This document shows, piece by piece, positions 12,349-41,686 of a stretch of 41,686 bases of DNA. The DNA is from Macrostomum lignano (Eukaryota), in contig NIVC01004573.1 in NCBI GenBank assembly GCA_002269645.1, positions 1-41,686 on the forward strand, read 5' to 3'. A program made the position numbers and the translations under genes. The notes under the pieces were generated by a model. It worked only from the letters and a program-made list of their open reading frames with translations, was not told where the DNA came from and did no database searches. Numbering within the stretch: position 1 is the first letter of the stretch; every line of letters starts with the position of its first letter.

Positions 12349-15300
12349 TGCTGGGTTTTCAGATGTTTTGACGCAAAAAACGCAAATTATACTACTATCT
12401 GAAAATGAAGTAAGTAGTATACAAAAACGCTATCCTAAGCGTGATATATGCCAATATGTAGTTGTAATAATCCATGTGCTCATATTAATTCCATGTACAT
12501 TAATCCCTATCTATCCCAAATTGGATATGTACATTAATCCCTATCTCAAATGTCCATGTCTATCCCCAAGTCTATATGTACACTCACATTAATCTACAGT
12601 GTCATCCCCAGCGCGCGCGCACCAAAATTACATGTACAATACTACATGTACGCAGAGGCGAGAATTACTAATCTCATCTACTACCAAATGAGTCAACTAA
12701 CAGTGTAGCCTACAACGTAAATGTATATTTCCAATGTACATTTCTCAGACAGATTTGAATAATACTGGTCGGAGTCTTTATGTACATCGATAGCCTCTAT
12801 ACTCATATCCGCTACATACCCCAAAAATTAGGTATGTACATTTTCACCCTCGGAGACTGTAGGTTTGAATATGCTGATAATTTATTCAAAATCACTTATA
12901 AAATACACATACTTTCATATAGAGGCGGGCCTGTACAAACTCTCGCCAAGCGATGGGGTGGGGGTTGCGTCATCCAAGCCTCTCCCCAAGTCAGACCCCA
13001 AATGCAGGACTGTGTTGAAGCAGTGCTTTATATTTCTATATTGACAGTGTGGATGATACAAGACCTTTAATTGGTAATTATCAACTGCTACTGCTTTACG
13101 GTATATCCTCACCCCTCGAAGCCCCTATGTTGCATGTTGAATCACCCTTTATCTCCGGCCATATTCAAAATTCAACCCTGTTCGAAAACAGCCACCCCTC
13201 CGATGTTTACCAGACACAGCGCAGACCCCATAGCAAATTTTAACACTCGCCCCTGTTCTCTCTGCCCCACCCCCTTCTAAATGCCAAGGAATTTCGACCC
13301 TCTCTCCATTTTCAGTGTACAGACAGATCTTTCCACAGCACAGATCCTATATTAAACTTCAAAACCCCTCTCTTCTCCGATTACGTCATCCATGCCGCCC
13401 CAGTTAGCAAGATACCAACTTTTAATGCACACATCAACCCCACGAATCTGAGCAAATCCGAGTCAACCTCTACCTGCATTGACAAACCCCAGCTGCATTT
13501 GTAAATGTACACAGCCTATGAATCAGTGTCTCCTCCGCATACAATTCCGAGACTGAATTCTATGTATGTTCAAATAAATACTTTGACACTATAACCCATG
13601 CGGTATACTAGAAGTAGTGAAGTCCACCCGCCCAAAAACGTGCTGCTATGCCAATTCTATCGCCTCCCCTGCCTTCTCACTTCAAGCTTTCAGACTTGGT
13701 CTTTGAGACGGTCGGTTTAATCTGTTAGAAGCAGGAATGAATCATGCACTGACCTCTCCATACAAAGTAAAGTTGGAATTTCAGACAAAAAATTTGGTTA
13801 TTTTAAAAGCTAAATGACTAGAAATGCACATTTTTCATTAAAATGCTGCTTTTTACAGTTTTTTTACGATTTTAACCTTAAAATGCAGACTTTGTTGATC
13901 AAAATCAGTAGTTTCATCACTAGAAACCATACTTTCAACAGCTAATTTGTCCAAATGTCGCTTTCAACTTGACCTTAGACTGCTTTTAAGCAGGAATGAA
14001 CCCCACACAAACATCCACAAGCCAGCCCAAAATCATCCAAAGACATGGCTATTGAAGCCTAAATTGCTAGAAATGCGCATTTTTTTCATAAGAAAATACA
14101 AATTTTCACAGTTTTTATGCATTTTTACGTTAAAATGCAGACTTTATTGATCAAAATCAGTAGTTTCATCACTAGAAACCATACTTTCAGCAACTAATTT
14201 GTCCAAATATCGCTTTCAACTTGACCTTAGACAGCTTTTAAGCAGGAATAAACCCCCACGAACATACACAAGCTAGCCCAAAATCATCCAAAGACGGCTG
14301 TTGAAGACTAAATTGCTAGAAATGAGCATTTTTTCATAAGAAAACACAAATTTTCACAGTTTTTACGCATTTTTTACGTTAAAATGCAGACTTTATTGAT
14401 CAAAATCAGTAATTCATCACTAAAAACCACAATTTTAACACAAAATTATCACAAATGCTACTTCTGGAACTCTGAGACAGCTTTGAGCAGGAATTATAAT
14501 CGCACACGGATTACCCGAGCCAGTCCAATATTCCACTGAAGCCAGGGTTTTTTAAAGCTGAATTGTTAGAATTGCTCATTCTTTCGTTTAATAAATGACA
14601 ATTTTCACAGTTTTATTATTTTCTAACGTTAAAATGCGAAATGTATTGGTCAAACTTAGTAGTTTCATCCCAAAAAGCCATAATTTCAACTGCTAATTTG
14701 TCCAAATGCTGATTTCAAAGTTGGCAAGAGACAGCTTTCGAGCAGGAATGAGTCACACACTGATCTCCATATGCACACCCCGGCCCAAGTTGGAATTCCA
14801 CCCAAGACATTTTCATTGAAAGCTAAATTACTAGAAATTGCACATTTTCGTTTTAAAAAGGTCAATTTTCACAGTTTTTACTCTTTTTAACGTTAAAATG
14901 CTGACTTTATTGAACAAAATTAATCACTTCATCAGCAGAAACCATAATTTTTACAACTTAATGCTGTTTCATCACTCAAATGTATGTATTTGGTACGTGT
15001 AATACCCCTCAAGAAGTCAGGGAAGGGATTATTCTTGAATATAGGGTTAAAACGTAAAGTTTGCTATAAACCTAGCTATAATAATTTTAACATATACAGT
15101 CTGCGAAGCGGTCCGTTGATTTCGATTGACATTTAAACTGTCCCTCCCAGACCTCTCTCTCTCCTTCTGCACCCACCGAGAAAAGTGACTCATGCGGCAA
15201 TCAGTTTGACAGGTTTAGTATATTACTGAATTGGCAAAACAGCCAACACACAATGTTCATTAGACTCGTCTTCACAGCACAGACCCATGTAGAACAGAAC

Positions 15301-17943
15301 CACTCGTCCCTGTCTCTCTGACCTTACCATTTCTAACTGTCAAGGAATTCCGACCCTCCCTCTCCAATTTCAGTGTACAAACAGATATTTTCACAGCACA
15401 GACTCATATATTGAGCCTCCTCCAACCAAAACCCTATCTTGATTACGTCATCCACCTCCCCCATAGGAGCAGTTAGCAAGAAACAAAATTTTTCGATGCA
15501 CATATGAACACTGTGAACCATGCAAAATCGCACATCTACGGGTCGATTTTGATTGACAATTTAATACCTTTTGTTGATGCTGCTGTGTACAGTAGTCTTA
15601 TTTCCGAAGCTCCTAGCAGTCATCTTTTAGATGTGGTGAATCAGTGTTGTTTTTGCCAACTTTACATCTTGATTCATCCTCCAAATTCTTCAACTCTGAC
15701 CATATTCAATAATTCAGCAATTCTAACAATTCAGCTTTAAAAAACCCTGGCTTCAGTGGAATATTGGACTGGCTCGGGTAATCCGTGTGCGATTATAATT
15801 CCTGCTCAAAGCTGTCTCAGAGTTCCAGAAGTAGCATTTGTGATAATTTTGTGTTAAAATTGTGGTTTTTAGTGATGAATTACTGATTTTGATCAATAAA
15901 GTCTGCATTTTAACGTAAAAAATGCGTAAAAACTGTGAAAATTTGTGTTTTCTTATGAAAAAATGCTCATTTCTAGCAATTTAGTCTTCAACAGCCGTCT
16001 TTGGATGATTTTGGGCTAGCTTGTGTATGTTCGTGGGGGGTTTATTCCTGCTTAAAAGCTGTCTAAGGTCAAGTTGAAAGCGATATTTGGACAAATTAGT
16101 TGCTGAAAGTATGGTTTCTAGTGATGAAACTACTGATTTTGATCAATAAAGTCTGCATTTTAACGTAAAAATGCATAAAAACTGTGAAAATTTGTATTTT
16201 CTTATGAAAAAAATGCGCATTTCTAGCAATTTAGGCTTCAATAGCCATGTCTTTGGATGATTTTGGGCTGGCTTGTGGATGTTTGTGTGGGGTTCATTCC
16301 TGCTTAAAAGCAGTCTAAGGTCAAGTTGAAAGCGACATTTGGACAAATTAGCTGTTGAAAGTATGGTTTCTAGTGATGAAACTACTGATTTTGATCAACA
16401 AAGTCTGCATTTTAAGGTTAAAATCGTAAAAAAACTGTAAAAAGCTGCATTTTAATGAAAAATGTGCATTTCTAGTCATTTAGCTTTTAAAATAACCAAT
16501 TTTTTTGTCTGAAATTCCAACTTTACTTTGTATGGAGAGGTCAGTGCATGATTCATTCCTGCTTCTAACAGATTAAACCGACCGTCTCAAAGACCAAGTC
16601 TGAAAGCTTGAAGTGAGAAGGCAGGGGAGGCGATAGAATTGGCATAGCAGCACGTTTTTGGGCGGGTGGACTTCACTACTTCTAGTATACCGCATGGGTT
16701 ATAGTGTCAAAGTATTTATTTGAACATACATAGAATTCAGTCTCGGAATTGTATGCGGAGGAGACACTGATTCATAGGCTGTGTACATTTACAAATGCAG
16801 CTGGGGTTTGTCAATGCAGGTAGAGGTTGACTCGGATTTGCTCAGATTCGTGGGGTTGATGTGTGCATTAAAAGTTGGTATCTTGCTAACTGGGGCGGCA
16901 TGGATGACGTAATCGGAGAAGAGAGGGGTTTTGAAGTTTAATATAGGATCTGTGCTGTGGAAAGATCTGTCTGTACACTGAAAATGGAGAGAGGGTCGAA
17001 ATTCCTTGGCATTTAGAAGGGGGGGGGCAGAGAGAACAGGGGCGAGTGTTAAAATTTGCTATGGGGTCTGCGCTGTGTCTGGTAAACATCGGAGGGGTGG
17101 CTGTTTTCGAACAGGGTTGAATTTTGAATATGGCCGGAGATAAAGGGTGATTCAACATGCAACATAGGGGCTTCGAGGGGTGAGGATATACCGTAAAGCA
17201 GTAGCAGTTGATAATTACCAATTAAAGGTCTTGTATCATCCACACTGTCAATATAGAAATATAAAGCACTGCTTCAACACAGTCCTGCATTTGGGGTCTG
17301 ACTTGGGGAGAGGCTTGGATGACGCAACCCCCACCCCATCGCTTGGCGAGAGTTTGTACAGGCCCGCCTCTATATGAAAGTATGTGTATTTTATAAGTGA
17401 TTTTGAATAAATTATCAGCATATTCAAACCTACAGTCTCCGAGGGTGAAAATGTACATACCTAATTTTTGGGGTATGTAGCGGATATGAGTATAGAGGCT
17501 ATCGATGTACATAAAGACTCCGACCAGTATTATTCAAATCTGTCTGAGAAATGTACATTGGAAATATACATTTACGTTGTAGGCTACACTGTTAGTTGAC
17601 TCATTTGGTAGTATATGAGATTAGTAATTCTCGCCTCTGCGTACATGTAGTATTGTACATGTAATTTTGGTGCGCGCGCGCTGGGGATGACACTGTAGAT
17701 TAATGTGAGTGTACATATAGACTTGGGGATAGACATGGACATTTGAGATAGGGATTAATGTACATATCCAATTTGGGATAGATAGGGATTAATGTACATG
17801 GAATTAATATGAGCACATGGATTATTACAACTACATATTGGCATATATCACGCTTAGGATAGCGTTTTTGTATACTACTTACTTCATTTTCAGATAGTAG
17901 TATAATTTGCGTTTTTTGCGTCAAAACATCTGAAAACCCAGCA
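12349..17943. mobile_element. Foldback-like structure: ~2.23 kb inverted arms (12349-14576 and 15716-17943) around a 1.14 kb spacer; non-coding
   Basis: Arms are reverse complements. Mirrored ORFs in the track sum to 30292 (12780..13070 vs 17222..17512). Only a few substitutions seen (ctcatctact/ctcatatact; ccccacccc/ccccccccc; atgctgct/atgcagct). Confidence 0.9.
13790..14950 (+). repeat. About 5 diverged tandem copies of a ~250-bp AT-rich unit (inner left arm running into the spacer; mirrored in the right arm)
   Basis: Marker aaaatgc(a/t/g)ga recurs at 13880, 14132, 14381, 14631 and 14895. Confidence 0.85.
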
Positions 17944-32854: not shown

Positions 32855-32963
32855 GAAGCTTCCTTGCTGATGTACATGGGAAGTACATGCATCTTTCTCA
32901 AAACCTGTGAGGACCCCAGACACCCTCAGCTAAATACGCATTTTGGCTTTGCATTGGACTACT

Positions 32964-33480
32964 AAGGGCCGGCAGATCCGGGCGTTTTTGGAGGTGGGGT
33001 GGGTGTCAACCCTCCTCACCTCTCATTGGTCGGCGCGTGGCGCCAAGCGCCGTCCAGGCGCCGAGCGCCCACCGGGCGCCAGCCGCAGGCGGCCCGCCAA
33101 GCGCCGTCCAGGCGCCGAGCGCCGACCAGGCGCCAGCCGCAGGCGGCCCTACCGACATGTACACCCTCCCCAGCCGCAGGCAACCCTCCCCAGCCGCAGG
33201 CGACCCTACCGACATGTATGCCGCAGGCGCACCCTCCCGATATGTACCCCGATATGCCCACCCTCCCGATATGTACCCCGATATGTTTGCCCTCCCTCCA
33301 GAGCAGCAGGCGCCCATGCCGCAGGCGCCCCACTCTCTCAAGCCGCAGGCACCCCGAGTGTACACTCTCCCGAGCCGCAGGCACCCGAGTGTACACTCTC
33401 CCATGCCGCAGGCACCCCGAGTGTACACTCTCCTCAGTACACTCTCCCGATATGTAGTCAATGATATTAGGCTAGTGAAA
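32964..33480. repeat. GC-rich block of short direct repeats (GCCGCAGGC core about 9x; two ~56-bp units; GTGTACACTCTCC units)
   Basis: Direct repeats read at 33041-33148 and 33340-33450. Inverted pair TGGTCGGCGC (33027) / GCGCCGACCA (33119). Confidence 0.7.
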
Positions 33481-33949
33481 ACTACTTATAGTAGGTGAAA
33501 TTGAGTATATTTACATAAAAAGTATAAAAAACATATTGGTAGGTGTGAATAATGATGCATAATGCATCATATTAAAATGTACATATTGGAGCATAATAGG
33601 AATATGAGCAGCAAAAAACACACAACGTAGGCGCATATTATTGATATATTGACAGAAAAGCAGGTGAAATAGACAAAATAATACAAAGCGGGTACTGTAA
33701 GCGCTAATAAAACATAGGTGGAAATACACACAAGTATAATAATACAGGAAAATTACATAGCATATAATGTAGGCAGATTTTAAACATTACATTTTGCATA
33801 TTAACCCGCAGGCACAAATTTCAATGCATAGGATAAAATACACACACTGGAAGTTAAGTATAATACAACATATGCATGCAAAATTAAGCATATAATGTAG
33901 GTGCAAAGTCAAATATCCAGCCCAGGATATTCGAGACACGCCCCCAGAG

Positions 33950-34198
33950 CCAGGGCCGGGGGATCCCAATGTACAGTGCGGGCGGAGTAACATAGAGAAA
34001 TTCAATTCCTCCCCAGGGCCGGGGGATCCTTAGCGGAGTACAGTGCAGGCAGAGAGGAGTAACAGAGACCGCCCCAATGTACAGTGGAGGTAGCAGACCG
34101 CATACAAAGAGAATTCTCCCCAGGGGAGCTTCCAAATAGGTTTTATTATCCCAAGTGCGGCGCAGACAGGGGAATCTCGGTCAGGGGAGACTGTAAGG
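33950..34198 (+). repeat. Left inverted repeat (visible matched part)
   Basis: Reverse complement of 41428-41675, e.g. ccaatgtacagtggaggtagcagaccgcatacaaagagaattctcccc. Differences are mostly homopolymer length. Confidence 0.93.
34142..34147 (-). terminator. AATAAA poly(A) signal in the left repeat, serving the leftward genes
   Basis: tttatt on the + strand, mirror of 41481-41486. Confidence 0.5.
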
Positions 34199-34366
34199 GA
34201 GACAATTTTCTCCCTGAATTAGTCTTTTAACCCCCCCCTCAATATACTCAGTGTATACTGTGGGGTTTCCCTAAACCACGTACAGGGAGAAAAAACCGCA
34301 AACCCAGTCAACCTCCAGCCGCTCCTCAGTGTTGTTTCATGCCGCCTCCTCCTCAAGGGTCTCGAA

Positions 34367-35344
34367 TCAGTTGTCGGCCGACTGCAATGGGGAAATTAAA
34401 ACAATTAATGTAGAAAGAATATATGCTTTGTATATGATAAGACGAATTGTGTATACAGTGTAATATCTTACCATAGGTGCATCCCACTCAGTAGGGCGCG
34501 CTCCCGGACCGGCCAGATATGCCTCAGTGTCGGAGGCATGCGAATTGCGCCCCATCAACCAATCTTGATGTAGTGTCTCTGCCTCCAACACCTCCCGTAG
34601 GTCAGCCCCCCTCGACACCACACCAAAGTATCGAGAACCCGATTAAAGGCCTCGACAAAGGTGTCTTGGGGAGGCAGGCCGTCGGGTGGCGAGACCTCAA
34701 CCACTCGATATCACGGTGAAAAAAGGAGGCCACAATACGCGGAAAGCGATCGCGGACCATGGCGATCTCCTCGGCCATATTCATTTCCTCATCACCAAAG
34801 AGAAGGATCGTGGTGGCTGATGATATCGAGGCTTGGCTGGAGGCGCAGAGGCAGAGACACCAGAGTCGGCAGCGGCAGAGTCGGCATCGGCGGCAGAGGT
34901 GGCAGAGGCAGAGACACCAGAGTCGGCAGAGGTGGCAGGGGCGGCAGAGGCTGAGACACCAGGGTCGGCAGCGGCAGAGTCGGCATCGGCGGCAGAGGTG
35001 GCAGAGTCGGCATCGGCAGAGGCACCAGAGTCGGCAGCGGCGGCGTTCACACCCCCTCCGATAGTCAGCGGTGGGAGGTCGAAAATCTCAGACCCGGTGT
35101 CGCTATCGTAGCTATTACCCCACGGGATGTCGAAAATCTCAGACCCCGGGTCGCTATCGTAGGTAATAGCCCACAAAGCCCAAGATAAGGCTATATCAGC
35201 ACCCCAATTTTCAGGATAGTCAAGTCCGCCGTTTTCTATGCCTATGGGGATTATATGTTCGGGTATTTCACCGTCGAGGGAGGCTAATTCTTCAGATGGG
35301 CGGTTTTTATCCCAGAGGGTGGATAGAGCTCGGCGGCGGGACAT
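34367..35344 (-). CDS. Orphan element gene (acidic N-terminus, Ala/Ser/Asp repeat linker, predicted helical C-terminus); frameshifted in this assembly; intron 34471-34382
   Basis: ATG at 35344 with TATATAA at 35421-35415. ORF 34781..35344 can be chained to the frames FGDEEMNMAEE..., DGLPPQDTFVEAFNRVLDTL and VVSRGADLREVLEAE...DAPM by three single-base additions. Donor ATG|gtaaga, acceptor cattgcag|TCGGCCGACAACTGA. Confidence 0.5.
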
Positions 35345-35456: not shown

Positions 35457-35993
35457 CTACCAGCGCTGACTCTCGTCAAACAGATTTTCCCAGGGCGGGG
35501 ATTGGTAGGGTTTGAGACCCGCAACCTGGAGATTTTCTTCCTCCTCCTCAGTCCTGGCTACCGGAGAGGTCTCGGTCCTGGCTCGTTTGGCTGGCGGCGG
35601 GGCCTTGGGTTTGAAGAGCTTGCCCAAACGGGCGGCAAACATCCGGCGCCACAGTTCCGGCGTGAATTCAATTGTGTAGCGCCAATTGAACTTTGGATCC
35701 CGATTAAGCCAATTGCGCCGCAAACGAATCCTCCCCTGTGAAGCTTCTGCTGCCTTGAAGCTGCCCAACACGACTCTCTTGTCCACGTGAAGACGTGCCG
35801 CAGCCTCCAGGTCAGGGCGTGCAGCTTCGAGCTTCTTCCACTCGACCTCGCTTAAATAGATTGCTGGGAAGCCGTCCTTCCACACTCCAGCTTCGTCGGT
35901 GTAGAGCCGACGGATTTCAATTAAGTCATGCTCCGTTTCAAATGTGGGCTTCCGCGCCACAAAGTTTTCGTATAGAGCGATAGAAGAAGACAT
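35457..35993 (-). CDS. PC4/Sub1-like ssDNA-binding protein, probably two tandem PC4-like repeats (178 aa)
   Basis: LIEIRRLYTDEAGVWKDGFPAIYLSEVEWKKL follows the PC4 pattern (IDIReyw.d..Ge.kPg.kGIsL..eqW..L). A second copy reads IRLRRNWLNRDPKFNWRYTIEFTPELWRRM. TATATAAA about 45 nt upstream. Confidence 0.65.
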   Translation of the reverse strand: MSSSIALYENFVARKPTFETEHDLIEIRRLYTDEAGVWKDGFPAIYLSEVEWKKLEAARPDLEAAARLHVDKRVVLGSFKAAEASQGRIRLRRNWLNRDPKFNWRYTIEFTPELWRRMFAARLGKLFKPKAPPPAKRARTETSPVARTEEEEENLQVAGLKPYQSPPWENLFDESQRW

Positions 35994-36159: not shown

Positions 36160-36210
36160 TCGGAACCCTAGAACAGGGGTAGAGAGATAATCCTTCTCTC
36201 TGTATGCAAA

Positions 36211-39200
36211 ATGGCTAAACGCAGCGCAGCATCGACCACTTTCCTGGCTGACAAGAGGCAACGTCTTTATGGTAAGTTTTAATTAATTTCTATCCGGTTG
36301 TATATCAGTCTAGACGGGTTTTGAGTTGCTGCAGCAGGGAGCTTCTATGAATTGGCAGGGGCAGGAGCAAGAGGGGCGCGATAGAGAGTTGATAAGAGCA
36401 GACTAGACAGGCGGGGGCTAACAAAGAGTTGAGGGGTTTTCCGCTGTGACAGCTTCAGGCGCATGCGGGCTATAGAATTCAGAGTGCTGCGACAGGGAGC
36501 TTACGAGTTTGAGTAGGGAGGGGGCGCAAACAAAGAGCAGGCCGGATGCGGCTAGGGTTAAAAAAATTGCAGAGCATTTCAACAGGAGGGCTTGCGTGCG
36601 AGGGGTTATGCGTGAGCGCAAACAAAGAGCCAGGCCAGATAAAAAGTGGTGGGCGCTCTGACAGCTGCAGGAGCATGCGGGAATTCAGAGTGCTGCGACA
36701 GGGCATGCGAGTTTGAGTAGAGAGGGGGCGAAAACAAAGAACCAGGCAGGATGCGGGCTGGGGTTAAAAAATTGCAGAGCGTTTCAGCAGCAGGGCATGC
36801 GTGCGAGGGGTAGCGCAAACAAAGAGCCAGGCGGGATGCGGCTGGGGTTAAAAAAATTGCAGAGCGTTTCAGCAGAAGGGCTTGTGCGGGAGGGGTAGCG
36901 CAAACAATGAGCCAGGCCGGATGCGGCTAGGGTTAAAAAATTGCAGATTCGTCTCGGCAGGGCGGCATGCGTGCGAGGGGTAGCGCTAACAATGAGCCGG
37001 GCCGGGCTGGATAACAGCTGCGGGCTGGGGTTAAAAAAATTGCAAAGCGTGTCGGTGAGAGGGCCTGAGCGCAAGGGGGGAGCGTGAACAATGAGTCGGT
37101 TGGAGTCTGATCCTGGGGTGCCACGAATTGACAGATTCTTCTGGTTTTTTATCTCCTTGTGTTTTTTCAGACGCGTTTGTCCGCCTGCCCAACCTGAATC
37201 TGTTACCGGACCGGGTGAGTTATCCAACCCCCCTATTCCCCAGGCAGATCCGGGCTGACTCACACTCCCCCTTCATTCCCCCTACAGGTTTTACGGCCCG
37301 GCTGGATAATCAGCGCGACCTGCCCAAGTTTAGGGCAAAGGGTGTTGAGTATGTGGTAAAGCTAGATGACACCGAAGATTTACGCGAGACATTTGCCAGC
37401 ATGCTCGAAGTTTTCAAGCAGGATTTGGCTGGTGATGACTTTATGGCGGCTAAATTCGAGAGTGATAATATGCTCAAAGCAGCCCACACTCCTCCGGTGC
37501 GTGCAGCCCGCATGACAGCAGAGTTGTTGTTTAAGCACATTGACAAGATTGTGCAGTCAGACGCAAGCGTACTGTCGAGCAACTTTTCTATCCGTCTGCT
37601 AAAGGCCTGGGTGCCTCGAGGTGGATGTGCTCTCGAGAACAAACATCTAGAGGAGCGGCATGCCTTCTCCAAGCACTATGTCCGCATCACCAACACGGAC
37701 AAGAGATGCCTGCTGCGAGCTCTGGTCGTGGCCTGCGCCTACCTGCAATTTGTGGCCAAGCGCATCACCGAGCAGGTGTGGCGTACAATCAGAGCCAATT
37801 CGCCCAAGCAGACTAAGCTGGCAACTGAGCTGCAAATTGAGGCTGGACTCTACACCGTGAGTTGTGAACTGATTTTCCTGATAAGAATTTCACTATCATG
37901 GAATACTAAAAGATATAATTTTTACTCAGTATCATGGAATACTAAAAGATATATCTTCTGATAAGAAATTTTACGATAAGGATTACTAAAATAAATATTT
38001 TGCCTCCACACAGACTCATCAAATCGTCTCGCAGGCCGGTCCTTTTGGGGTGGATGTTCTGCCCGAGGCGGTCCGGGCCCTGAACCGTCTGTATCCAGGC
38101 CACGATTTTGGTGTACGAGTGTACAGGGCAGAGGAGGCCAACACGTGCATATTCAACCTGCCTGGCACTGAGATTCTGCACCTGCACCTGGTTGAGCAGC
38201 ACTTCAATGTGGTCACCAAGCTGTCAGCGTTTTTCGGCAGCCACCACTACTGCGCCAAGTGCGAGATGGCCTACGATTGCGGCAACGCCAAGCACAAGTG
38301 CGCCGACGCCTGTAGCACCTGCAAGACTCCGGGCTCAAACTGCACAGTCAACCGTGCATATGTAAGATGCCAGGATTGCGGTCTAAATTGCTATAATGCT
38401 CAGTGCCTAGAGAATCACAAGCGCAAGAATAAGGCGGGCAGATCTCGCTGTGATTCAGTCCACGTTTGCGGCACGTGTGGCTATCTAGAAGAACTGAAAG
38501 TAGGCCACGCCCCCGAGCATCAGTGTGGTTACGCCAAGTGTCCAGTCTGCAAGCAGTACGACGAAACTGCCACCCACGAGTGCTTTGTCACCCCGCCCAA
38601 AGCCAAAGAGTCTAGCGCCCCGTATGTTTACTATGATTTCGAGACGTACGTGGACTCTGGCAAGCAGCACCGGGTACACTTGGTTACGGCTGCCACCTCC
38701 TGCGAGGCGTGTCCCAAACTCTTCCCCAGGCCCCGCTGCGGCGCGTGCGGGGGGTTGCACAGCTCAGCCAATTGCATTGCGGGACGCGATTTGGCGCGCG
38801 ATTTTACGAGCTGTGTCTCGCAAAATGACTGTGCCTGTGGGATGCGAGAGTTTGTATCTGTCGGGCCGCACTCTATCGATGCCTTTTACTGCTGGCTGAC
38901 TAGTGTGTTCAAGCAGGGGGCAATTGCAATTGCGCACAATGGCTCTGCGTATGACGCATTCCTCCTGCTCGGCGCCCTACTCAACGGACTGGCCAAGAAG
39001 AAGCCGCAGGTGATCTTCCAGAACAGCCGCCTAATGTACATGAAGTGCGACAAGATCACGTTCAAGGACAGCCTCAACTTTATCCCTATTGGTCTGGCGC
39101 AATTCCCAAAGGCGCTTGGTTTGGGCACCCAACTGACCAAAGGAGATTTCCCGCACGTGTTCAATCAGCCACAAAACTGGGGCTACGTAGGTCCCTACTG

Positions 39201-41422
39201 CTCAATTGATATGTACGGCGGGAAGAAGAATAAGCAGCACGACTCCATCGCTGACTGGCTGGCCAAGCAGGAGGGCCGAGTGTTTAATTTCAATAAGGAG
39301 TACCTGGACTATTGCCTGCAGGACACGCTAATTTTGCGGGAAGGCTGTCTAAAGTACACCCGCCTGATTAAGGACATTTGCGGACTGGACGCATTTGTCC
39401 AATCCAACACCATTGCGGGCTTGGCCATGGCTGTATTCACCACCAAGTTTATGGAGCCCAACACTCTTGGGGTGATTTCCCGCCGATCAGATGTGCAGTC
39501 GCACAAGGCGCGTGCTGGCTTGCACATTTGAATGCAACCGAGTTTGGCGGCCGTTGCGGACAGCCGACTCTGGCGGCGAGGCTTTCGCCATGGGCCGTAA
39601 GGTGGACGGTTTCGACCGGAGAGTAGGACTGTGCTGCAGTTTCATGGCTGTTTCTACCATGGCTGTCCCAAGTGCTTCCCCAACGGCGACGTGCTGCACC
39701 CGCTCAAGAACCAGCCAATGCGGGCGATTTATGAGGAGACTGAGCGCTTCACTCGCGCTCTCCACTGCCTACAATGTACGTGTTCTGTGGGAGCACGACT
39801 ATCAGGGCGAGGGAGCGCCAGTCCAGCAGCCTATTCGCCTGGAGGAAGCCCTGTTTGGCGGCCGCACCGAGGCTTTTGTCCCGCACGCCGAGGCCACCGA
39901 GACTGTGGAGCTGCGCTATCGGGATGTGGTAAGTTTTTTCAAAATTTCTCTTACACACACACACACACACACACATGCGCGCGCACACACACACACACAC
40001 ACACAGTTAACATGCGTTTGAGTTTAGCCTACTACTTTTCTCTAGGTGTCGCTCTACCCGACTGTCAACAAGTTTGACAAGTACCCTGTCGGGCACCCGG
40101 TTCACCACCCCGAGCCTCATCTACTGGATGAGCTGCAGCTGGCCCGGTATTTTGGTATCGCCGAGGTGTCGATTCTGCCGCCGACCAATCTCCACATCCC
40201 GCTACTGCCCGCCAAGATTAGCAAGAAGCTGGTTTTCGGCCTCTGCCGCGTCTGCATGGAGACCCAGTGCAGCAGCGAGTGTACACACACTGACGCTGAG
40301 AGAATGCTCCGCGGTACATGGGCGACCCAGAGCTCCACAAGGCCCTGCAGTTGGGATACAAGCTGCAGTCAGTTCATGCCCTGGCCTATTGGACCGAGAC
40401 TCGGACCGGGCTGTTTGCAGATTATGTAAACACCTTTTTGAAGCTCAAGGCCGAGTCTAGCGGTTCGCCGGGGATGACTGAGGACGCAAAGACTGCCTAC
40501 ATGGCGAGCTTTTTCGAGCGCGAAGGCGTCCGGCTGGAAAAGGTCGAAGAAAATCCTGGCCTGCGCTTTGTGGCCAAGATTTTTCTAAACTCGTAAGTCT
40601 GGGTTTGTACAGTGGTGGACCGTGTTTTTCTACTTACAGTAGTAATACTAAATCTTTTTTCCCTGCAGGCTCTGGGCAAATTCTGCCAGCGGGATGACTT
40701 GACCTCCACAGAGATTGTGGACAGTTACGAGGCGTGGCTGCAGCGCCTGACAGACCCGTCCATCAAAGTCAAGTCGTGCGAGCCAATAGGAGAGTGCTTC
40801 ATGATGCTTGAATACAAGCCCCGAATTGGTGTTGCTGGCGAGCGGGCATTCAAGTACGCCAATGTACCTATTGGAGTTTTCACCACCTCCCATGCCCGTC
40901 TGCGCTTGTACGAGGCTCTTGAGGGTCTAGGAACCCGCGTGATTTACGCCGATACTGATTCGTAAGTTTTTCACACTGTCTGTCTGTCTGCTTCGCTCCC
41001 CTAAACACTTTATTCTCCTCCTCCCCAGGGTCGTATACCGGTGCTCTCCAGGCCAGTACGAGCCTCCCAGCGGTTCGAGTTTGGGGCAGTGGACTGACGA
41101 GGTACCTGCCGGCTGCCGCATGGTACAGTTCACCACGGGAGGCCCCAAGCTCTATCGCTATGTGGTGGAGAAGCCCGACGGGTCGCTGTACTCGGTGCTC
41201 AAGTGCAAGGGCATCCGAGTCACGCCCGAGATTGCCGAGCGGGAGGCGGAGCTGCAGGAGATTCTGCGCCACGGCGGGACTGTACGGCTGCCCCAGGCAC
41301 AGTTCAGGCGCGACAAGGCCAGCTGTACAATTCGGACCCTGGAGATGGATAAGACATTCCAGCGCGTCATGACTAAGCGAGTGTATGGGTCTGGCAGCCG
41401 CCCGTATGGCTTTCGGGAGTGA
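36211..41422 (+). CDS. Protein-primed family B DNA polymerase (pPolB), about 1270 aa; exons 36211-36271, 37171-37214, 37288-37856, 38035(or 38014)-39928, 40046-40592, 40669-40961, 41029-41422; contains frameshifts
   Basis: ExoI YYDFETY, ExoII AHNGSAYD, FKDSLNF, KGDFPH, ExoIII YCLQD, LFGGRTE, motif A YRDV|VSLYP, YPVGHP, motif B KIFLNS|LWGKF, motif C YADTDS|V, then LGQWTDE, GGPKLYRY and KCKGI. Canonical gtaagt/gtgagt donors and pyrimidine-rich acceptors. Exon 1-2 phase is uncertain. Confidence 0.92.
36415..37095 (+). repeat. About 8 diverged copies of an ~85-100-bp unit inside pPolB intron 1
   Basis: Recurring gcaaacaaagagccagg...gatgcggct(a/g)gggttaaaaaaattgcagag, e.g. near 36526, 36618, 36815, 36899 and 36984. 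Confidence 0.8.
39953..40005. repeat. (CA)n microsatellite in the pPolB motif-A intron
   Basis: Read directly, interrupted by tgcgcgcg. Confidence 0.95.
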
Positions 41423-41427
41423 TAAGG

Positions 41428-41675
41428 CCTTACACAGTCTCCCCTGACTGAGATTCCCCTGTCTGCGCGGCACTTGAGATAATAAAACCTATTTGGAAGC
41501 CCCCCTGGGGAGAATTCTCTTTGTATGCGGTCTGCTACCTCCACTGTACATTGGGGCGGTCTCTGTTACTCCTCTCTGCCTGCACTGTACTCCGCTAAGG
41601 ATCCCCGGCCCTGGGAGGAATTGAATTTCTCTATGTTACTCCGCCCGCACTGTACATTGGGATCCCCGGCCCTGG
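41428..41675 (-). repeat. Right inverted repeat, starting 5 nt after the pPolB stop; probably continues past the window
   Basis: Reverse complement of 33950-34198. Confidence 0.93.
41481..41486 (+). terminator. AATAAA poly(A) signal for pPolB, inside the right repeat
   Basis: About 60 nt downstream of TGA 41420-41422. Confidence 0.6.
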
Positions 41676-41686
41676 GAGGAATGCGG

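Follow-up and report, generated by a model that had tools for sequence, protein, structure and literature searches.

Spliceosomal introns within the catalytic motifs of a flatworm Maverick DNA polymerase, possible relics of homing introns

Intact vertebrate Mavericks are described as free of introns in the accessible sections of PMC8097293. Ordinary spliceosomal introns do not favour conserved positions, while homing elements do prefer them (PMC2814812). For mirusviruses, the accessible text of PMC12768974, the only relevant paper found for the term shintron, describes shintrons, i.e. spliceosomal homing introns, together with MING-1 introns occupying fixed sites. According to the available part of PMC11296320, a free-standing nuclease can mobilise introns that lack an ORF; collaborative homing and, in Polinton-like viruses, homing endonucleases are treated in the same part and in that of PMC12220804. 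Introners have been reported in the eupolintoviruses of dinoflagellates, and the sections of PMC12166617 at hand mention no motif preference for them. A survey of Mavericks (10.1101/2023.08.22.554363), in its accessible portion, reports HNH and VSR domains in pPolB2, applies filters of a 650-aa match and a 900-aa ORF, and does not use the word 'homing'. A literature search over main texts, with few subscription journals and no Repbase reports among them, found no paper on spliceosomal introns in the motifs of protein-primed family B polymerases (pPolB).

The window, i.e. the whole stretch of 41,686 nucleotides analysed here, which coincides with contig G000:C4573, contains a pPolB gene in which motifs A, B and C are all present (PF03175, E 1e-14). 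Near-identical proteins in UniRef carry the name Macrostomum lignano DNA polymerase, and homologues of about 30-40% identity occur in fish, molluscs and arthropods. The gene lies on the plus strand and is made up of seven exons and six introns, the exons of one family-1 copy measuring 61, 45, 569, 1920, 548, 294 and 391 nt. It is carried by a Maverick/Polinton segment of about 9 kb, whose features in the window are the following.

32958..34194, no strand: left terminal inverted repeat, beginning 5'-ACTACTA; its inner part, 33950-34194, corresponds to 41675-41434 inverted, at 97%
34345..35343, minus: second small gene (predicted, approximate limits), low-complexity, probably with one intron
35457..35993, minus: PC4-like ORF of 178 aa, a lead only (ssDNA binding; Atlas 0.86, PF02229 clusters)
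36211..36271, plus: pPolB exon 1 (predicted), with a counterpart in family 2
36272..37170, plus: intron 1 (predicted, phase 1, repeat-filled), in the non-conserved N-terminus
37215..37287, plus: intron 2 (predicted, phase 1), in the non-conserved N-terminus
37857..38013, plus: intron 3 (phase 0), with a 157-nt joint in runs X9 and X12
38014..39928, plus: exon 4, with zinc fingers, exonuclease, VSR-like stretch and the start of motif A (PF03175)
39929..40045, plus: intron A (117 nt, phase 0), within motif A, DV|VSLYP
40046..40592, plus: exon 5, from motif A to motif B; the same exon makes up the stand-alone ORFs P0311 and P0312
40593..40668, plus: intron B (76 nt, phase 2), splitting the motif-B Ser codon, KxxxNS
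40669..40961, plus: exon 6, from motif B to motif C
40962..41028, plus: intron C (67 nt, phase 2), splitting the motif-C Ser codon, YxDTDS
41029..41422, plus: exon 7, with thumb, KxY and terminal PYG
41434..41686, no strand: right terminal inverted repeat, its first part only, as the contig stops here

The earlier note had proposed that three spliceosomal introns interrupt the catalytic motifs, that B and C both divide a TC|G serine codon, and that the preceding exon of about 1.9 kb is free of introns. The sequence agrees on each of these points, with the borders listed above; the three introns are of GT-AG type, with GTAAGT donors and YAG acceptors. Its intron count was too low, since introns 1, 2 and 3 had been missed. 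Introns 1 and 2, for which no RNA joint is listed, are predicted from splice signals, reading frame and a position common to both subfamilies of the gene, while intron 3 lies ahead of the zinc-finger region, at a site which is not conserved. The window copy loses its frame at several points, namely near 39.5, 39.75 and 40.3 kb and again immediately behind the B acceptor; the reading LWGKF proposed for motif B is therefore that of most other copies, but not of this one. The stretch preceding motif A, which we take to be VSR-like from its pattern, gave no match in Pfam or PDB. The same identity is carried by one JGI name (P0200), and VSR domains in pPolB2 are described in 10.1101/2023.08.22.554363.

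Splicing was checked by aligning four sequencing runs (X1, X2, X9 and X12), as contigs, to positions 37100-41686. X9 and X12 are probably RNA, a label which was guessed and is backed by their own joints, none of the four runs being recorded as RNA. A joint skipping the 117 nt of intron A, with GT..AG borders, is present in both, and so is a joint at intron B. For intron C no joint is listed, and two contigs of X12 carry a loose end of 17 letters at 40962 matching the start of the next exon. Neither X1, guessed to be DNA, nor the unlabelled X2 shows joints at A, B, C or 37857-38013. The RNA check of the junctions thus succeeded directly for A and B, and for C by the loose end only. Intron C is unspliced in two low-depth contigs of X9/X12, which are uninformative on regulation because both end at 41099, a breakpoint of rearranged copies. 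Introns A, B and C are spliceosomal today and are excised by the host spliceosome, as shown directly for A and B and indirectly for C.

Family-1 copies of the element measure 8.7-9.8 kb, with inverted repeats of 0.7-1.4 kb and ends 5'-ACTAC..GTAGT-3'. Perfect 6-bp target duplications flank L004, L005, L006, C211, C41, C2932, C260 and C2285, the window copy being cut by the contig end; the copy in G000:C2932 (L260-L262) is inserted within a gene of another Maverick family. The second small gene is present in some family-1 copies only, its sequence being common to L002 and L003, and has no Pfam match. The PC4-like ORF, whose Atlas score is below the 0.9 level, has no match in Pfam or PHROG. Neither was found in the family-2 copy which was read fully upstream. 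Rearranged or head-to-head copies form clusters at L007, L008, L009, L015, L078 and L097 and in contigs C157, C471 and C513, and their inversion joint, 37757/41100, occurs in X1 and X9 too. Elsewhere in the window, CCCTAA-type telomeric repeats at 9-233, the contig start, are followed by many tandem arrays, and positions 12349-17943 hold 2.2-kb inverted repeats (99.8%) with ends of family-2 type, which enclose no ORF longer than about 110 aa, probably a non-autonomous passenger.

Searches by tblastn with integrase, ATPase and protease queries gave no match within the family loci or in the window, apart from one weak match outside the element. The integrase, ATPase, capsid and protease genes, missing from the polymerase element, were found in a partner:

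G000:C2722:3698-14438 (L271/L272), also in C150, C392 and C594 (L275-L280): partner element

The partner is a polymerase-less element of 10.2-10.7 kb with 5'-ACTAC ends and 6-bp duplications, encoding an integrase (rve), an ATPase, a major capsid protein (Atlas 0.98) and a protease-like ORF; a Fic-domain or Fic-like ORF is also found in the copies of C2722 and C150. In C594 each of the genes for integrase, capsid, protease and ATPase consists of one ORF, and introns occur only on the polymerase segment. The partner integrase has 40 matches falling in two groups (97-100% and 76-77%), and the ends of the two partner groups resemble those of the two polymerase subfamilies. These data suggest that the polymerase element and its partner are two segments of one Maverick, which would move together; no description of a two-segment Maverick was found in the literature search. 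The full Mavericks of this genome (C114, C506) have AGTAGT ends, and other Maverick families (L026-L032) carry genes for a protein with an F5/8 type C domain and for a dUTPase, as well as an ORF resembling adenovirus protein X.

A search of the 764-Mb genome with exon 6 gave 105 matches, most of them in two groups of about 97% and 65-76% identity, none with an open frame longer than 280 aa; the family amounts to about 100 copies in this Macrostomum-type flatworm genome. Intron sites were surveyed in 79 loci fetched around exon 6 matches. L020 was set aside, six loci gave no anchor and two contained two copies; 76 copies were anchored, the window included. Sites could be resolved for A in 60 copies, for B in 61 and for C in 74. 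None of these 195 sites is empty, all introns measure 65-128 nt, 189 have GT-AG ends, and no nuclease ORF, or any other ORF, is contained in them. The remaining two C sites correspond to a small indel and to a 2.2-kb insert in L011, which was considered as a homing cassette and rejected, being LTR-like. The two subfamilies, 64% identical in protein sequence, have all six intron positions in common and show neither gain nor loss, while the similarity between their intron sequences is largely gone, these diverging freely.

Introns A, B and C are also dissimilar from one another (median z -0.7 to 0.5 across sites). Genome-wide searches, which covered B and C, returned matches at the respective site of family copies only (11/11 for B and 20/20 for C). 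If retained, intron B gives a stop at its first codon in 58/61 copies and intron C in 71/74; intron A is stop-free and a multiple of three in 13/60 copies, and is still an intron there. Junction-side codons show no extra nucleotide constraint (10/29 versus 285/613 identical, P 0.25). No Rfam match above or near threshold, and no group I core, was found over 36200-41686. Intron B and, in family 2, intron A contain short palindromes or hairpins that resemble the element end motif ACTACT/AGTAGT (L009-L019).

The earlier note had suggested a search for relatives devoid of introns; none was found among the 76 family copies, and those detected belong to other families. The nearest relative in the genome, the decayed L021, is intronless, and so are 13 loci of other pPolB families, in which long open frames run through motifs B and C; of the 974 own-genome candidates only 91 were scored by PF03175, and very distant intron-bearing families may have been missed. 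P0311 and P0312, proteins without a name that share 65% and 61% identity with exon 5, start at VSLYP and end at IFLNS, which places introns A and B in additional members of the clade as well. In a tree this clade is strongly supported and has a long stem. The motif introns trace back to a single gain, in the common ancestor of this clade of Mavericks, and were fixed before the subfamilies split.

The probability that at least three of six introns fall by chance within the 24 codons of motifs A, B and C is 1.1e-4, or 9e-4 when 46 motif codons are considered. In a conservation profile built from 119 homologues, sites A, B and C rank among the best conserved windows (top 0.2-10%) and the remaining introns in the bottom 40%, with chance values from 5e-4 to 1.6e-2 according to window size. 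All these single-gene values (about 1e-4 to 1e-2) are post hoc, the gene having been picked from a very large scan; for this reason, loci from outside the genome were examined.

For the survey we used a spliced aligner that had been checked on L021 and on two copies of the family; it covered 12 viral loci, the best 80 of 489 metagenome loci, 49 loci from genome bins and one further viral locus. The patterns used to fetch these loci mostly require an intact motif B or C, and are therefore biased against motif-split genes. Outside loci are mostly intronless; after curation by hand, credible introns were retained at 11 positions in five lineages.

L155: introns at profile 730 and at 898, the latter in the motif-A Ser codon, AG|C, 5 nt from intron A
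L156: intron at profile 903, one codon after SLYP, with only the acceptor side on the contig
L220: introns at profile 875, in FGG|R, and at 1079, in the invariant Lys of motif B
L219, L223, L228, L236 and L239 (lineage D): introns at profile 323, 389, 686, 999 and 1057, none in A, B or C
L204-L207, L209, L211, L213 and L221 (eight-locus family): intron at profile 130, in the N-terminal part of pPolB

Two of the 11 introns lie inside motifs A, B or C (0.32 expected, P 0.037) and three within 2 codons of them (P 0.011), while Fisher P ranges between 0.005 and 0.044 for the 8 core sites and between 0.02 and 0.15 for all 11. Twenty-five aligner calls (22/24 plus 3) were discarded on visual inspection, either because they were judged to be in-frame insertions or for their poor splice sites, the most doubtful drop being L185 (56 nt, near the C-terminus). 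None of them lies in a motif, so that the enrichment disappears if many are real, and curation thus favours a homing reading. The introns of lineage D are located at moderately conserved sites of the core. Both this lineage and the multi-copy eight-locus family come from bacterial bins, where many Maverick contigs are filed. Among 16 junctions considered together, G is the first exon base in 9 and AG precedes the donor in 2. Neither an intein nor a group I intron turned up in 142 related loci, and many in-frame insertions are present in loops of the intronless relatives. Viral contigs scanned with exon 6 and with L155 yielded no useful relative, and a donor-after-DTDS pattern gave 5 matches there, none of them in a polymerase context. 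Clustering at motifs of intron positions in related genes is supported by three lineages, in or beside A and B at other nucleotides, and opposed by a fourth with five introns, all outside.

A further hint of motif introns is given by truncated protein ends, read from protein sequences and not from DNA. Among 16 ORF fragments not belonging to Macrostomum, seven end at the motif-B Asn/Ser (profile 1084-1085), five of which are outside the window clade, in a separate second clade, beside sisters verified as intronless on DNA. The endings of these five read LNS stop, LNR stop or LNR followed by junk; three of the seven read N-R, as expected for an AG|GT phase-2 intron. In other fragments junk is found just before SLYP or GGRT. 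Outside the own clade, 4 of 13 ends fall at one codon, for a binomial probability of about 1e-4 under an assumed range of ends. In a tree of 42 rows three changes of the motif-B label are required, at least two of which are forced by starred branches; a single origin is found in 0/200 bootstrap trees, and one origin is not rejected by the AU test (p 0.277).

The reading we prefer, with a probability of roughly 0.45, is that introns A, B and C arrived by homing and are what is left, after emptying, of spliceosomal homing introns comparable to mirusvirus shintrons. A nuclease, once encoded within the intron or supplied in trans, would have cut the few sequences that co-resident Mavericks keep in common, namely the catalytic motifs. 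The intron-bearing allele would then have been copied into the cut site, and the intron would have shrunk to an empty form of 65-128 nt, removable only by exact deletion. The three N-terminal introns would require a separate, untargeted origin. Homing is favoured by the rank of the A, B and C sites among conserved windows and by the intronless state of L021 and of the 13 other-family loci; several offsets within one motif are what independent targeted insertions are expected to produce, and homing fits best in that it requires sequence shared by diverged co-resident elements, yields varied offsets and leads to fixed introns devoid of a nuclease. It is weakened by the lack of a nuclease ORF in the resolved introns and of a match to one in the partner proteins (endonuclease families were compared with six proteins of that segment, and none matched), by the 76 copies devoid of an intron-free allele, which indicate no homing in progress, and by lineage D. 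Further weight on this side comes from the three introns, out of six in the window, which lie in the least conserved region, from the small size of the outside test and its dependence on the 25 hand-dropped calls, and from the AU result for motif B and the protein ends lacking DNA. The resemblance to homing elements noticed earlier is therefore upheld by the motif A and B introns of other lineages, the motif-B protein ends and the mirusvirus precedent, but not by a nuclease or an empty allele. The motif introns are probably part of a wider pattern in Mavericks. More tentatively, and with some doubt, animal Mavericks may host homing spliceosomal introns which target the pPolB catalytic motifs, the flatworm gene being an end state with all motifs occupied and nuclease genes lost, on the replication segment of a two-segment Maverick.

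A similar distribution might be left by trapping, a minor but real possibility, if introns arrived untargeted, were lost from flexible regions by imprecise deletion or by conversion to in-frame protein insertions, and persisted where the junction must be exact. The in-frame loop insertions of intronless relatives, the copies in which a stop-free intron A of suitable length remains an intron, and the core sites of lineage D all fit this scheme, which would predict a broader set of sites rather than three in the top few percent. Sites intolerant to indels span far more of a polymerase than its catalytic motifs. Trapping also agrees poorly with the absence of gain or loss between subfamilies as distant as 64% identity and with the persistence of three introns in the variable N-terminus. 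Chance combined with ascertainment, by which a large scan flags those genes whose introns happen to strike recognisable motifs, is unlikely. About 250,000 windows were scanned, neither lineage D nor the single-intron family L204-L221 has motif introns, and the outside test, on a small and curation-dependent sample, gives only P 0.01-0.04; however, the fetch patterns work against motif-split genes, and the pile-up of ORF ends at one codon is hardly expected by chance.

Selection for a function of the introns is improbable, whether as a splicing switch or safety catch or as a means to break the DNA identity of the motifs against rival nucleases or recombination with other Mavericks. It could explain why only the polymerase segment has introns, the partner genes of C594 being single ORFs, why retention of B or C leads to an immediate stop in nearly all copies, and why every position is kept in both subfamilies. 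The stop is, however, automatic for any phase-2 GTRA donor following TC|G, intron sequences diverge freely, and junction-side codons show no added constraint. The switch suggested in the earlier note, by which no active polymerase is made without splicing, is weak, as any intron upstream of motif C would block activity and placement at the motifs is not predicted. Insertion of introners, as small transposons, or at a preferred AG|G context which motif codons offer by chance, is highly improbable. G is frequent as first exon base, and introners are known in Polinton-type elements of dinoflagellates (accessible part of PMC12166617), but AG rarely precedes the donor; spread of introner type, also raised earlier, is at odds with three introns unlike each other, and with B and C matching only at their own family sites; an introner old enough to have decayed is a remote possibility. 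That inteins or group I introns were converted directly to spliceosomal ones is barely tenable. Three PolB intein sites, which we take to lie in the same three motifs, would be about 3, 2 and 8 nt away from these introns; the positions are thus close but do not coincide, and two of the introns are in phase 2. This origin, entertained in the earlier note, finds no trace in Rfam or in the 142 related loci, and the introns are 65-128 nt long and removed at the RNA level.

The gene departs from two reports, with support from probable RNA, as its introns do not follow the rule of no preference for conserved sites and as Mavericks are described as intronless. Should the motif bias hold in a larger set, Mavericks would offer a second and far more accessible system, in animal genomes and with RNA data, in which to ask whether spliceosomal introns can originate by homing and later lose their nuclease, a potential way for introns to be gained. 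Surveys relying on long ORFs or intact motifs, such as the filters in the accessible portion of 10.1101/2023.08.22.554363, will miss motif-split lineages. That one Maverick has apparently been divided between a polymerase segment and an integrase/capsid segment is a lead of its own.

With respect to known systems, the element shares with animal Mavericks/Polintons (pPolB, PF03175) the PolB motifs, long terminal inverted repeats along with target duplications of 6 bp. It works like a Maverick, yet taken alone it differs in three features: its ends are reversed, 5'-ACTAC..GTAGT-3' instead of 5'-(AGT)n or (AG)n; the integrase, ATPase, capsid and protease genes which Mavericks carry are not on it; and its pPolB has six introns, whereas Maverick core genes are described as intronless in the accessible sections of PMC8097293. 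Inteins are removed at the protein level, in contrast to introns that leave joints in RNA and carry immediate stops in B and C, and group I introns have a catalytic core, in contrast to sequences of 67-117 nt with no Rfam match. Eupolintovirus introners (PMC12166617, sections at hand) are likewise spliceosomal introns inside Polinton-type elements, but place similar sequences at many unrelated sites, whereas the flatworm introns have neither a shared sequence nor copies beyond the family. Homing self-splicing elements prefer the most conserved sites (PMC2814812), as A, B and C do, but the flatworm introns are removed by the spliceosome, no nuclease was identified for them, and they are located at other positions than the PolB intein sites considered above. 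A further likeness is to the shintrons and MING-1 introns in the accessible text of PMC12768974, which are GT-AG introns at fixed conserved sites in a core gene of a nuclear virus-like element and, in the case of shintrons, equally lack a group I or II signature. Intron-free alleles, a feature of shintrons, were not found in this genome, while presence at motif B is patchy in the second clade as judged from protein ends. Shintrons contain an endonuclease gene and the flatworm introns do not, which places A, B and C outside the shintron class as defined; they function as a homing intron would in its emptied final state.
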